Shown: piece after piece, positions 12,001 through 54,000 of the stretch | Numbering within the stretch: position 1 is the first letter of the stretch | How the letters are laid out: each line of letters begins with the position of its first letter | Source: a virus | Direction: 5' to 3' (one strand) | DNA: 64,000 bases | Virus record (IMG/VR): IMGVR_UViG_3300045988_184269 | Position numbers: made by a program

Positions 12001-15000
12001 AAGAACAAGAAGAAAAGACGTCCTGAGGGGGTGAGCGAAATGTGTGATAAATCTAAGACCGCATATTCCATCAACAACTACTATATCGAGCAAATCGTCG
12101 CACTGACGCTTCAGTCCAAGGGTGCATGGACGATTGTGATGTACCTCGCCGGACAAATGAACGACGAGAATATCGTATACTGTCGGCGCGATGCGCTGTG
12201 TGAGGCGACTGGCGGAAAACTCCGCAGCGTTACCTCGTGGATTACCGCCCTGCAGAAATACGGCTTTATCTATGTGGTACGCAAGGATAAGGAGGGCTGG
12301 GAGTTCGCTGTGAATCCTGCGCTTATCGTCCGTGGTATTCCTGACAAGGACCGCAAGTACCCGATGTGGCCGCAGGGGTTGACTATCACAGGCCCTGTCA
12401 TGGAGTCTCATGATAAATGGGTCGAAAACAATATGGCGCCTGAAGTTCCTGCGGAGCCTGTGGTGGTGCAGACCGCCTACAGCAACGCTTAACCAAGAAG
12501 AAAGGAGGACACGTTATTGGTAACAATCTTCGCAAGAGATGACCATGTCGGCATCATGTGCGGCGTCGAGGACGGTGAGCTGTTCCTTTGTAACTACCGC
12601 GACGGTTACACGATGCCCGACACTCCCGCAAACCGAAACCAGCTTATGAGAGACTTCTTCTACTACAGTCAGGTTGGGTTCTGGGGGTAAACGAAAAGTG
12701 TGCAATGATTGCACACTTTTCCAGAGAGCGATTTTAAGTACGGATGGTATGACCGGAATTTACGCCTGTGGAGACGGATGTTCGTCATTGAAGCAGGAAA
12801 TTGCCGTGTATTCCGAACTCTATGTGAGAGATAGCTTCGGATTGAAGAAGCGGTGACTGTACCATTTCCATAAGGCGGGAGCAAATTTTTATGAACCGCC
12901 TATCGAGACGCAAAAGGGGTAGTCTCTAAGAGAGGCGAATTGAAAAGTGTGCAATCATTGCACACTTTAGGGTGGCATACTTTTTCAAACTTGAAAGGAC
13001 AAAAGAATTATGAAGACGATTACGAACTTTAAGCGTATTCTCTCTGCCTTTTTACTCCTCTGCGTTCTCCTGAGCTGCGTGGGTATTAAGGCATACGCCG
13101 CCAGCACTGTGCGTGATGGTGAGGTTGTGAAGCAGGGTATCCTGATGAAGTCCACGGACGGTATGGTTACTGTCCATGAGACTGCAGCGCACACCACTGG
13201 CAATGACTTTGATGTGACGATGACTGTCACTACTTCCGATTTGGTCGAACTGGAGCCCGTGAAGCCCGTTCATATCGTGCTGTGCATCGACCGCTCCAAT
13301 AGTATGGATGGCGACCGGCGCACTAATACCAGAGCTGCTGTGAACGAGTTTGTCTCCGGCATCCTCGATAAAGACGGCATTGCTGCCGGCAATCAGGTCT
13401 CCGTTGTGAGTTTTGGTACGAAATACTGGAGTCACTGTTGGCTGACCAACGACACGGCTAAGGTCTCTGAGGCTGTTACCACGGCGACGACTGCTGTAAG
13501 TGATATCTATGATGGTGGCACCAATGTGCAGGCCGGTATTTATGCTGCCCAGCAGGTATTTGCTGCCGATAAGAGCTCTGCACAGAAGGTCATCGTCCTG
13601 TTCTCTGATGGTATGCCCACGTACAGCTATCGTCTGACCGGTACGGCTGATTGGTCTGGCTGCACCGAGTCTGGCCGGCGCCACAACTGGAATAAGTCCA
13701 GCGGCACTGCCAGCAACCTCGTTACCAGCTTCGACCGTAATTCCATCGTTGGCAGTGGTTCCGACTTCGAGTACACGCAGGACAACCACTATGCTTCTCT
13801 GGATGTCACCTGCGAGCATGATGAGCGCACAACTCTGACTAACAAGGTCTATGCAGATAACGGCCAGCCCGCTATCGTTCAGGCGCAGGCTGCCAAGGAT
13901 TCCGGTTTTGAGATTTTCACCGTGTTTCTGGATGGCTATGGCAAGAATGAGCAGACCAGCAAGCAGAATGCCGAGGACACCATGAAGGCTGTTGCGACCG
14001 ACGCAGACCACTACCTGTCTACGCAGGACATGAACGAACTGAGCGACCTGTTCAAGAGTATCGGCAATTCCATTGTGACGACCACCAACGCCGGTACGGT
14101 CGTGGCACCCATGGGCAGCTACATCCAGCTTGGTTCCGTGTCTGAGTTGGAGGCTTTCGGTATCGCAAAGACTTCCGATGGTTTGACGTGGAACGTCACC
14201 GCAGTGACTCCTACTGTAGATGAGGAGAAGGGAACTCGTTCCTATACCGTAACCTATCCCATTACTCTCCAGACTGACAAGGAAGGTTTCGTAGAAGGAA
14301 AGGCCTATGATGTCAACCCCTCTGCTGTGTTGACCTATACCTTCGGCGGCGTGGAGAAGACCATTGCTTTCGATATTCCCACTGTGCGCGGCTATCTGCC
14401 CTACGTTGAGCCTGTCGAGGTTTCCTATAACATCAAGCATGAGTATTACACCAATGGTGAACTGGACGGCTCCATCACTGTTACACAGACTGCCGAGGAA
14501 GGTACTGAGATTGACAGTTTCACGTTGGATAAGATTACCGAATACAACGATGAAACCTACGGGTATACTTCTGCTGACCCCTCTGTCATGATTGTGTCTG
14601 AGGGCGCAACCATGACGCTGCGTTACGACCGTGTTGTCGAGACTCCTCCCACGCCTCCTATGCCTCCTGTGAACATCAACATTGTTTACACTATTCGGCA
14701 CGAATACTACACAAATGATGTATTTGATGGCGCTACCACTATCGAAGAGGAAAACGCTTCCGGATATGTGGTATCCGAGGATGCCATTGTCAAGGTTCTG
14801 AACTATCAGGATGGCGAGTATGAGTATACCGGCTGCACTCCCTCTGAGCTGACGCTGGATTATGGTCAGGAAAATACTATCGTCCTGCGCTATGACCGCA
14901 CTGTTGAGGTCACTCCTGTTGAGGTGAACTACACCATCAAGCATGAGTATTATACCAACAACGAACTCGATGGCGAGACAGTAGTTGAGTCTGCCGGCGC

Positions 15001-51000: not shown

Positions 51001-54000
51001 AGAAATTCGGTGATGAAATCCAGTCAAAGGCGCAGGTTGACATGAATGCGTTGGGTATCGAGATTATCTCCTGCAACATCCAGCGTGTGACTGACGAGAA
51101 GGGCCTCATCAATGCTCTGGGTCAGGATAATATGAGTCAAATCCAGAAAAATGCTTCTATCGCCAAGGCTGAAGCGGAGCGCGATATCCAGATTGCTCAG
51201 GCGGAAGCAGCGCGTCAGGCGAACGAGGCTCAGGTCGCATCCGATACGCAGATTTCTATTCGGCAGACCGAGCTGGCTGTGAAGCAGGCCGAGCTGAAGG
51301 AGACCTCCGACATCAAGAAGGCTGCCGCCGATGCTGCCTATAGAATTGAGGAACAGAAGCAGCGCCGGAGCCTTGATATTGCTTCTACCGATGCCGATAT
51401 TGCGAAGCGTGAAAAGGAAGCAGAACTGGCCGAGCGTGAAATCACGCTGCAGGAGCGTCGGCTTGATGCCGATATCCGCAAGAAGGCGGATGCTGATAAG
51501 TATGCTGCCGAAAAGAAGGCCGAAGCAGAGCTGTACGCCCGTAAACAGGAAGCCGAGGCCAAGCGCTTTGAGCAGGAGCAGATTGCCGAAGGTATCAAGG
51601 CCGTTGGTGCCGCAGAAGCCGAGACTATCAAGGCCAAGGCTCTGGCCGAAGCGGAGGGTATCGACCGTAAGGCTGAGGCCATGAAGAAGTATGGTGAGGC
51701 CGCAGTGGTCGAGATGATTATGAACGCACTGCCCGAAATCGCCAAGAACGTGGCTGCACCTCTCTCCAACGTGGACTCCATCACCATGTACGGCGAGGGT
51801 AACAGCACAAAGCTGATTGAGGACATCGTTTCTTCTACCACTCAGGTTTCCAACGGTATGCTGAACGGTCTGGGTATCGACCTGCGGAGCCTGCTGGCCG
51901 GCTTTGTCGGTGGTAAGGTCGCAGTTCCCGCATCTACTTCCAGTGTTGAGTCTACCGCTACCTCTTCGGGCGACGCTGAGTAAACACAATATCCCGCCGT
52001 AGGCACTCCCTGCGGCGGGTCATACGGAGAGATGGCTGAGTGGTCGAAAGCACCGGTCTTGAAATCCGGCGATGTGAAAGCATCCGTGGGTTCGAATCCC
52101 ACTCTCTCCGCCACAAAAACGAGTACGGACGGTATAACCGGAATTTACGCCTGTGGAGATGGATGTCCGTCGGTGAAACAGGAAGACTTTGTTGGCTGGT
52201 TAATCATGTGAGAGGTAGTGCCAGCACTTCAGGGAACTGAATATGCCTGTGTCGGGTGTATGAGGCTCTGAAATAACAGGATTGTATACCAAACTGCGTG
52301 CATATTGGCCGGTGTATAAGACACCAAAATAACATGGTTATCCCTCGTAAGAAAGGGATTTCGGAAAATGTGTGCAATGATTGCACACATAAAGAAGTAC
52401 GGATGGTACAACCGGAATTAACGCCTGCGGAGACGAACTCCGTCGTAGAAGCAGGAACTTGCCATACAAAGCGCACAAAAGGTTGAATATCCGAACATGA
52501 GCAAGCGTACAAAAATCGGTGGAATGGCAGGTGACTTATGAATGGCAGACTATTTCAAAGTTGTATATTCGCGGGAACTTTCCTCAGAATATGAGCCGCG
52601 CTACATTGTCATACAACCCAAGACCGGTGCGGTACTGGATGATGCCCAAGGTTTCGGCTACACGAGCCGCGAGAAGGCGGCAAAGGCGTACACCTATAAG
52701 AAGATGCCGCATCCCGAACAGCGGTCTCTGGCGGCCCGCAAACGCCGCGTAGAGAAGTGGTGTCTGGAGCACCTTGATGTGGTAGATGGTTATGCTGACA
52801 TCTGCTTGCAACATATGAAGGCATCTGGTGATGGACGTATCAGTATGAGCTCTGCTGTTGTTTCCCGTTATTTGAAGGACTGCGGATACGATAACCTGCC
52901 GTTCTCGGCGCAGGACTTTATCCGCTACTGCAAAACTTAAAATCAAAAAAGGGTAGTCAAAAAAAGAGGTGAAAGGACAATGAAGAACACCATTTTGGGG
53001 ACGGTGCGCTTCAATGACATCGAGGCGTACAAGAATGAGTGGGCAGCGAGAAGCCGTGAATGGCGCTTTGAAAAGGCCCGACAGGAAGAAACTCGCATTA
53101 TCAGAGAGAATGACAGAGACGATGCAACGCTCTTTTTGGGGCTTACGGACCTGTCCAGTCTCTCACGAGATAGTGACACCAATGAGAGATGGTGGCGGAA
53201 ACACATTGAGGACTATCTCAAGAACCTTTCTGAGTTCATCGACTACTGCAAGACCTATGAGCAGCCCGCCAACGTATATAGCAATTATAAGGGCATCGGT
53301 ATGGTCGTTGGTCTCGGCAGCCGCAGATTCTTTCTCTACCAGCCGGACTCTCTGGTGGCGGAGTATGTGCCGGTCAAGGACTATTCCGAAATGTCCGTGG
53401 GCGAGATGCGAGCCCTCGCAACGCATGGAGCTTCATCGACGCTGCCGGCATCCGTGCCTGAGGCTCTTTCTGTCTCTCAAGTACGTGAAGGTCTGTCCGA
53501 CCGTGAGGCGGAGCTGAACTCGCTCAAGGCCGATATTGAGGCAACGAGAAATGGCACCAGCGAAGAACTTCGCGCCCTCAAGGAAGAGGTCGAGCGTGCC
53601 ATGGCAGCCTTGGAGCAGAAAAAGGACAAACTGATGGCAGAGCTGTCCGCCAAACGCGAGGCTCTGGAGGAACAGGTAGAAATGATGAACAATCAGATTT
53701 ACCTGTTGGAATCTCAGATTTATGCTATCCGCTGCTACATGGGTGAGACAATCAACTTTACCCGTATCCGCACTGGACGGAACGCACCGGAAAAGGAACC
53801 GGTCGTCCTGTTTCAGAAGCTCCGTTTTCTCGATGAAGAGATGGGGCGTCTTGCTTCCATTTACAACATGAAAGAAAGCAAGCTGAAGTATTTCGAGGAG
53901 TTTCTCGCAGCGTCTCCTGTTGCGCTGGATACCTTTGCTCCCAGCGAGAAGTGTGTTGCGCTGGTTCGCCTCAGCAAGACTGGCAAGCACTTCTTTGGTC

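Follow-up and report, generated by a model that had tools for sequence, protein, structure and literature searches.

The stretch of DNA analysed here, called the window, comprises 64,000 nt of the IMG/VR virus record IMGVR_UViG_3300045988_184269; all coordinates are those of the whole stretch. Our subject is a set of four related intergenic repeat modules, A to D, that lie far apart in it. The window carries RepL-like genes, ParA/ParB genes, and genes for a VirB2-like pilin, a CHAP/lysozyme protein, and topoisomerase III, and also encodes very large repeat-rich surface proteins; it is part of a conjugative plasmid-like element. Parts of it are 98–99% identical to the IMG/VR loci L134, L123 (contig 3300045988_183830), and L118 (contig 3300045988_183936). 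In public contigs of 117–208 kb, a type IV secretion system (T4SS) coupling protein and a VirB4-like ATPase are encoded immediately to the left of the window, and the host element family is one of ~120–210 kb human-gut conjugative plasmids. Module A follows the RepL-like open reading frames (ORFs) and module B precedes parA, with a VWA adhesin gene between the two modules. Module C stands directly after a tRNA-Ser gene, a junction that recurs in many relatives, and module D lies in the leader of a gene for a 132-aa protein (52542–52940), 82 nt upstream of the gene. Table 1 lists the modules and their parts together with the copies of a short palindrome, P, which is a boundary element of the modules.

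Table 1. Coordinates of the modules, their array elements, and associated features in the window
Feature	Position	Strand	Description
Module A, core	12738–12799	+	62 nt with helices P1, P2, and P3; pattern match, covariance model (75.5 bits), covariation
Module A, divergent second domain	12800–12863	+	three-stem fold; ends ...CTGTACC
Module B, full scaffold	15981–16147	+	167 nt: core, domain 2, and terminal 36-nt hairpin (16112–16147), which is repeat 1
Module B, spacer 1	16148–16166	+	19 nt, AAAATCTTGGGTTCTTACA
Module B, repeat 2	16167–16202	+	36-nt hairpin
Module B, terminal spacer-like sequence	16203–16220	+	18 nt, TTACGGATTATCTGAATG
Module C, full scaffold	52123–52290	+	168 nt; terminal repeat hairpin 52255–52290
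Module C, spacer-like sequence	52291–52310	+	20 nt
Module C, decayed second repeat	52311–52343	+	
Module D	52397–52457	+	core only, 71.6 bits
Palindrome P	8205–8235, 12693–12721, 12942–12968, 15935–15963, 16302–16329, 18443–18467, 52366–52392		13-bp stem, A and T flanks
tRNA-Ser(UGA)	52026–52113	+	ARAGORN, Rfam; ends 9 nt before the module C core
15/16 match to the first 16 nt of the module B terminal spacer	45169–45184	+	inside a helix-turn-helix (HTH) gene, 44586–45503; weak lead

A 37-nt degenerate pattern matched the 64 kb four times, always on the + strand (at 12738, 15981, 52123, and 52397), and had no match in 100 shuffles; a covariance model built from 26 diverse homologues recovered exactly the same four copies at 69–75 bits, with the next match at 8 bits. 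The four modules reported in the initial annotation of this DNA therefore stand, as do the orders P–A–P–VWA gene–P–B–P and tRNA–C–P–D. Pairwise identity among the four 62-nt cores was 80.6–88.7%, and the full units B and C were 85.7% identical. An internal motif had been described as 27 bp long and tandemly duplicated in B. The duplication is real, the motif GAAATAACAGGRTTGTATACC occurring at 16127, 16182, and 52270 (twice in B and once in C), but the sequence as written is 21 nt long and the unit duplicated is a 36-nt hairpin (−16.8 kcal/mol, z = −4.6), with 19 nt between the two copies. Module A had likewise been given as 64 nt; its core was correctly placed but its extent was not, for the next ~64 nt fold like domain 2 of B.

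In B and C the scaffold is complete and the array rudimentary; the scaffold of A is divergent and has another 3′ end; D is a truncated scaffold, a remnant fused to a gene leader. The structure assigned to the B scaffold is the consensus fold of 25 scaffolds. The second domain of A has the same nested three-stem fold and GUGAGAG loop as B at 16043–16111, built from different base pairs; the fold is kept by compensatory changes in all three stems, which argues for selection on the RNA and against decay. This version of the domain was found only in L134 and L118, and a fixed guide starting at 12864, directly after it, is possible. The second repeat of C no longer folds as a hairpin, and D has lost domain 2 in the window but retains it at the same position in relatives. 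Module B lies upstream of parA even in ~80% identical relatives, whatever is upstream of B itself, module A is present only in the closest relatives, and the order tRNA–module–palindrome–module is conserved in many relatives.

Searches of standard collections identified little besides the tRNA. Rfam returned only the tRNA from the whole window at the gathering threshold, and nothing else of relevance from 51900–52700, around C and D, at E ≤ 10; when the module regions were compared by BLAST with PLSDB and GenBank phages, nothing but tRNA-Ser was matched, and a 67-nt core had no match in PLSDB. Public collections were then scanned with the most conserved 21-mer, CCGGAATTNACGCCTGNGGAG, which yielded 75 genomic and 86 viral loci, with ~4 genomic loci expected by our estimate for a 19-base pattern. 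Matches in Flavobacteriia/Bacteroidota proved to be a conserved protein-coding stretch without the GTACGG hairpin and were discarded as false positives. The remaining loci share one architecture: GTACGG, a short hairpin, CCGGAATTNACGCCTGYGGAG, a variable hairpin, and GAAGCAGGAA.

This architecture is found at the ends of tnpB genes. In Brevibacillus the motif begins ~25 nt past the stop codon of a tnpB ORF that ends ...DRDLNASINLAKLAS (DRDLNASINL); in Methanosarcinales it is contained in the terminal part of tnpB, ...RDHNAAINIKNRYVRADCPELTPVE (RDHNAAINIKN); and in a proteobacterial metagenome-assembled genome it lies inside tnpB in another reading frame, ...NAAKNLERYSTVSSTGINACGAG (NAAKNLERY). 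Conservation across reading frames, both inside and outside ORFs, indicates that the RNA is the conserved entity. Consistent with a structured RNA, which was part of the third reading offered in the initial annotation and the only one of its proposals to prove right in kind, the helices covary across the 26 homologues: the proposed helices are paired in 89.8% of cases in these copies, versus 79% in column shuffles and 21–41% with slid partners. Covariation was seen in P1 and P3, pairs 4 and 5 of P1 having three and six pair types, respectively, and pair 86:94 of domain 2 is UA in nine sequences, CG in eight, and UG in five. Across 100 scaffolds conservation stops at ...GTTGTATACC, after which the sequence is unique, and at canonical phage TnpB loci in the same scans the scaffold ends ...AATTCAC and then diverges. 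By sequence homology, then, the 62-nt core is the conserved core of a TnpB omegaRNA (guide-RNA) scaffold. The usual location of such an RNA, in cis with tnpB and inside transposon ends, is not seen in the window, which has neither a TnpB ORF nor left or right ends.

The last 36 nt of the scaffold, the terminal hairpin, recur in relatives as a direct repeat between unique sequences. A metagenome scan with this repeat yielded 64 further contig stretches, the longest of 134 kb and several with a human-gut label. All loci together contain 246 arrays of one to nine repeats, with a commonest period of 66 nt; 96 of the 161 unique internal spacers are 30 nt long and 126 are 29–31 nt. A core lies ≤200 nt upstream in 187 of the 221 arrays that have enough upstream sequence. 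L141 and L092 have identical scaffolds and flanks but different spacers. Similarly, the B array of the window has two repeats and a 19-nt spacer, whereas its 98–99% identical relatives L123 and L118 lack that spacer and have three repeats with 30-nt and 7-nt spacers. Different spacers on identical scaffolds and flanks mean that the arrays turn over. The 18 nt that end the B array recur at the start of a 29-nt internal spacer of other arrays (L102, L103), and are therefore a genuine spacer. The family as a whole thus has the 36-nt repeats and ~30-nt unique spacers of a CRISPR array, and the window has them only in rudiment. No Cas1 or Cas2 matches were found among the few neighbouring ORFs scanned, a check that was not a systematic search for adaptation genes.

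A candidate protein partner is encoded in relatives of the plasmid. A TnpB profile matched no ORF of the window but 44 of related contigs. In L083 (contig 183830, whose other loci are 98–99% identical to the window) a 352-aa ORF is followed by P and then by a full module. The same order is present in L088, L163, and L164, with the module within ~60 nt of the gene, and more distant versions (88% and 75% identical) likewise have the gene, a palindrome, and a module plus array. The 352-aa protein has the Pfam domains OrfB_IS605 and HTH_OrfB_IS605 and aligns to residues 5–324 of ISDra2 TnpB (8BF8, 8H1J; E = 5e-51). Its RuvC-I motif has serine in place of aspartate, reading GISLG(LKELA) versus the GIDLG of active TnpBs; the RuvC-II glutamate is kept; and RuvC-III is reduced to a remnant, KHDEALAQVVL, with alanine replacing aspartate at the catalytic position. 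The zinc ribbon has been deleted, and 24 residues are all that is left of the zinc-ribbon/TNB domain. TldRs are operationally defined by loss of at least two of the DED residues, often with a truncated C-terminus (10.1101/2023.11.30.569447; 10.64898/2026.09.22.753285). Having lost two RuvC residues and the zinc ribbon, the protein of L083, L088, L163, and L164 falls within this definition, and this TnpB derivative is TldR-like and predicted to be nuclease-dead. The 352-aa clade consists of three clusters at 90% identity with ~520 member sequences, all metagenomic, and its next relatives are ordinary 370-aa TnpBs with 51–53% identity.

Some of these tldR-like genes carry a core-only copy of the module in their own 5′ leader, ~35 nt before the ATG (L083 3532–3597, L132 2169–2234, and also L081 and L082), which suggests autoregulation via the protein’s own RNA-binding site; the 88% and 75% subclades do not have this copy. 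In some relatives, among them L088 (2439–3664 and 4040–4400), an apparently active TnpB, with GIDVG, EDL, and HDRDINAAINIL intact, is encoded ~1 kb upstream of the dead gene. We set it aside as partner of the modules since the omegaRNA core that belongs to it is a different one (50.9 bits) and the locus resembles a separate IS element. By eye, a cluster of tRNA-like genes can be seen after this active TnpB.

When the spacers were concatenated and searched against GenBank phages, a single record was matched: MT835962.1, a 14.7-kb human faecal ‘Bacteriophage sp.’ entry without annotation. After enlargement of the spacer set, matches to this record came from six spacers of six arrays, all within 1.3 kb (positions 694–1971). 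One gene concerned is a small excisionase-like (xis-like) HTH gene, with sites ahead of it, over its ribosome-binding site (RBS) and start codon, and in its interior; two of the protospacers cover its promoter/RBS. Other matches fall on both strands of one site in an adjacent ORF, which we read from its sequence as a putative tyrosine integrase. The matches are 28–31 nt long with 0–2 mismatches; less close are those of a 20-nt spacer (19/20) and, at 23/30, of the B-array spacer of the window’s closest relatives (L118, L123). The 5′ flank ends in G at all six sites, which by our estimate would occur by chance about once in 4,000, six sites being too few to define a target-adjacent motif. The 20-nt spacer, from L183, matches at 19 of 20 positions the 3′ end of the 30-nt protospacer of the L204 and L131 spacers (MT835962.1 1898–1927), so that the short spacers of 18–20 nt, including those of the window, may be 5′-truncated derivatives of 30-nt spacers. 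Spacers had no match in PLSDB, three scans of IMG/VR returned arrays only, and a search for self- and cross-targets against all fetched loci likewise returned only other arrays.

The matched element itself carries a guide-less core copy (63 bits; L162 2780–2894, reverse complement), followed by a strong GC hairpin. The copy directly precedes the targeted xis-like gene, has no tnpB close by, and may be a decoy or anti-system RNA or else a shared regulatory element. RNA anti-CRISPRs, solitary repeat units of phages, were reportedly described by Camara-Wilpert and colleagues in 2023; the guide-less core copy in the targeted element resembles them, if by analogy only.

Taken together, these observations lead us to favour, with moderate confidence, the explanation that the four modules are scaffold genes, or transcribed segments, of a TnpB-type guide RNA, two of them (B and C) with mini CRISPR-like arrays, and that their partner is a nuclease-dead, TldR-like TnpB encoded outside the window. 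What is observed is the homology, the covarying RNA structure, the arrays, the loss of catalytic residues in the protein of relatives, and the matches of spacers; expression, binding, silencing, and an effector on this exact plasmid we infer. The 352-aa protein would be encoded elsewhere on the plasmid, beyond the 64 kb; the 10 kb past the left end of the window contain T4SS genes only and no TnpB-like gene. Reiteration of the 36-nt 3′ hairpin would have given the form scaffold–spacer–(repeat–spacer)n. The modules would be transcribed, C being released at the 3′ end of tRNA-Ser, where tRNA processing probably sets its 5′ end, and the others at the flanking palindrome hairpins. The dead TnpB would then bind the conserved core, the 3′ spacer would pair with DNA, and the complex would block transcription without cutting, as do TldR and Cas12m. 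In relatives, the target seen is the xis/integrase control region of a rival integrative element.

Several results weigh against this explanation. No TnpB-like ORF was found in the window by motif regular expressions or by profile search, so that the link to the effector comes from near-identical relatives. None of the six spacers that match MT835962.1 is the window’s own, and for the latter spacers no target was found besides one 15/16 match. The window’s arrays are minimal, with 19–20-nt spacers, one decayed repeat, and a truncated D, and loss of function may be under way in its copies. Around the modules, scans for promoters and terminators gave nothing above shuffles and no convincing upstream promoter. 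Single-sequence folding energies of the cores were unremarkable (z from −1.4 to +0.9); single-sequence folding being uninformative here, the structure became clear only from comparative data. Finally, the model leaves unaccounted for how repeat–spacer units would be loaded without the 130-nt 5′ scaffold. The 15/16 match, at 45169, is probably due to chance: the similarity goes no further, and the 5′ flank has a final A where the six MT835962.1 sites have G.

Other explanations can be built from the same observations. The core might act mainly in cis, as a site for the dead TnpB in mRNA leaders (for tldR autoregulation and for control of the VWA adhesin and 132-aa genes), or as a guide-less titrating mimic, and so not be a guide-RNA gene at all. 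The core-only copies in tldR-like leaders, the position of D before the gene at 52542 and of A upstream of the VWA gene, and the core copy with its strong hairpin and no tnpB nearby in the targeted faecal element all fit such a role. It is needless, however, for a pure cis element to have the whole scaffold and spacers, as do B, C, and most of the 246 arrays, and a palindrome hairpin separates A from the VWA gene. We regard a mainly cis or decoy function as unlikely overall; for A and D it complements the guide-RNA explanation more than it competes with it.

Somewhat less likely still is that the modules are inert, decaying remnants of the right ends of IS200/IS605-type (TnpB) transposons, or non-autonomous PATE-like derivatives of these, inserted repeatedly. 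Homology of the core to the 3′ end of tnpB is in keeping with this origin, as are the single orientation of all four copies, which strand-biased transposition of single-stranded DNA would give, the visible degradation of D and of the second repeat of C, and the active TnpB with its own omegaRNA in relatives. Yet no left end, TnpA, or tnpB remnant lies beside any copy, the positions are syntenic in relatives down to ~80% identity, A and B differ by compensatory changes and not by random decay, and regular arrays of 36-nt repeats and 30-nt unique spacers that match a foreign element are unlike transposon scars.

The initial annotation had also proposed that the modules are att-like recombination sites that define an exchangeable adhesin cassette, or a relic of integration at tRNA-Ser. 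Some observations speak for these proposals: A and B are direct repeats around the VWA gene, the region upstream of B differs between relatives, and C abuts a tRNA 3′ end, which is a classic integration site. Neither is supported overall. No integrase or recombinase adjoins the modules, as judged by the domains encoded near them; A is confined to the closest relatives, and B stays upstream of parA regardless; and close relatives differ inside the array, in spacer and repeat number, and not by an A–B cassette swap or at module boundaries. The tRNA is intact and has no partial duplicate, and the conserved order tRNA–module–palindrome–module fits co-transcription and processing better than an att remnant. 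Moreover, the sequence family is an RNA scaffold common to the tnpB loci of distant phyla. We therefore consider recombination sites or an integration scar very improbable. Least credible of all is the reading of the modules as replication iterons, the remaining suggestion of that annotation, or as partition sites near the RepL-like and ParA/ParB genes. Although A follows the RepL-like ORFs and B precedes parA, the units measure 60–170 nt, are dispersed instead of tandem, and are conserved in the form of paired RNA helices; C and D lie 36 kb away from rep and par; and P, which is short and perfectly palindromic, would be the likelier protein-binding site.

Returning to the guide-RNA explanation, the modules can be compared with several known systems. 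Like the omegaRNA (reRNA) of IS200/IS605 elements (OMEGA), whose 62-nt core has the same helices at the tnpB 3′ end, they have the scaffold 5′ and variable sequence 3′; unlike it, they are attached neither to tnpB nor to transposon ends, and are ~167 nt long versus ~96 nt, with the 3′ hairpin reiterated between spacers. In described TldR systems the guide RNA is encoded beside tldR and is aimed at a host promoter, such as that of fliC or oppA (Wiegand et al., 10.1101/2023.11.30.569447; Xiao et al., 10.64898/2026.09.22.753285). The effector of the relatives resembles these in the replacement of two of three RuvC residues, in a C-terminus without zinc finger, and in the guide RNA-like module just downstream. 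The plasmid family differs in its many dispersed modules (19 across six loci), each with a multi-spacer array, in its conjugative plasmid carrier, in spacers that match another mobile element, and in a clade known from metagenomes only.

Standalone omegaRNAs that act in trans, with the effector encoded elsewhere in the genome, have also been described (Altae-Tran 2021 as summarised in PMC10691335). These too are scaffold copies without an adjacent effector, but they are mobilised transposon derivatives with one guide each, whereas the modules are fixed syntenic sites with arrays. Our scans showed ~10 core copies in the single genome of Ktedonospora formicarum (L001, L005, L012, L014, L020, L028, L032, L043, L054), none with an adjacent tnpB and all preceded by a conserved ...TTTCTGCTAGAATT... 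stretch that resembles a −10 box; they too look like such standalone copies, apparently omegaRNA genes that each have a promoter.

The arrays can also be compared with minimal type V systems (Cas12f, the V-U groups, Cas12m). About 50 independent origins of Cas12 from TnpB have been inferred, and arrays may have come from omegaRNA segments being duplicated in series (PMC10691335), and omegaRNA arrays have been reported beside inactivated, sigma-associated (d)Cas12f (PMC10691335; PMC13472631). Features in common with the plasmid system are arrays downstream of a TnpB-derived effector, no adaptation genes seen in linkage, a repeat equal to the omegaRNA 3′ end, and, in some lineages, an inactive nuclease with presumed silencing. 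The plasmid system differs in that its effector has only 352 aa and is ~45% identical to ISDra2 TnpB, in that the first repeat remains joined to a complete omegaRNA scaffold, and in having many mini-arrays and no single array. We found no literature description of the 352-aa clade or of dispersed scaffolds with mini-arrays, published supplementary classifications lying outside this comparison; the clade may already be listed there among the unnamed V-U groups (40 groups) or the inactivated groups.

A bolder possibility, which we hold only tentatively and think rather doubtful, is that the family is a living intermediate between a transposon omegaRNA and a CRISPR–tracrRNA system. Many dispersed loci, each with a complete omegaRNA scaffold fused to a turning-over mini-array and one released by a tRNA, would serve a 352-aa dead TnpB, and the system would silence the excision/integration module of rival integrative elements without cutting it; the scaffold-only copies (A, D, the tldR leader, and the targeted element) would be trans partners for processed CRISPR RNAs, or autoregulatory or decoy RNAs. 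If the guide-RNA explanation is true, the plasmids offer a natural example of CRISPR arrays arising from omegaRNA by reiteration of its 3′ hairpin, a step that has been proposed from phylogeny and is rarely seen with the scaffold still attached. It would also extend repressors of the TldR kind from one guide against a host gene to multiplexed, changeable guides, and would place RNA-guided repression on a widespread human-gut conjugative plasmid with another mobile element as apparent target, making the conflict between plasmid and integrative element directly testable. The very small effector, the natural multi-guide units, and the tRNA–guide fusion would be of interest for compact tools of the CRISPR-interference type. 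For annotation, these intergenic repeats would be labelled guide-RNA or omegaRNA-like genes, and not att sites.

The palindrome AAGTGTGCAATSATTGCACACTT occurs seven times in the window. It is a perfect palindrome with a 13-bp stem, AAAAGTGTGCAAT(C/G)ATTGCACACTTTT, that lies in intergenic gaps, right after stop codons, and on both sides of parAB, and it folds with −17.3 kcal/mol (z = −6.5). P is present in 93 of the 228 fetched loci of the plasmid family; in relatives it separates the tldR-like stop codon from the first module. Possible roles are those of a shared bidirectional terminator, an RNase processing site, or a binding site for ParB or a repressor. A role for P as supplier of a −35 box for the modules was rejected because the spacing between P and module varies from 9 to 22 nt.

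Nearly all other repeat families of the window belong to two giant ORFs, 18628–30054 (3808 aa) and 31836–37466 (1876 aa), which contain many tandem domain repeats of ~375 nt and ~276 nt with 60–76% DNA identity. Outside these, a ~40–60-nt repeat containing TTGACA, a 16-nt spacer, and TGGTAGTGT is found at 18547–18584 (+) and, on the opposite strand, at 6572–6634, 10476–10528, and 63957–63994. Several operons, in both orientations, have it upstream, the gene for the 3808-aa surface protein among them; it is probably a strong promoter that they share. Another repeat that resembles a promoter, CTTGACATTTTTTTAT(A/G)TTCGTGTTATAGTCA, contains TTGACA, a 17-nt spacer, and TATAGT, and occurs at 30260–30291 (+), 49658–49697 (+), and 41360–41399 (−).

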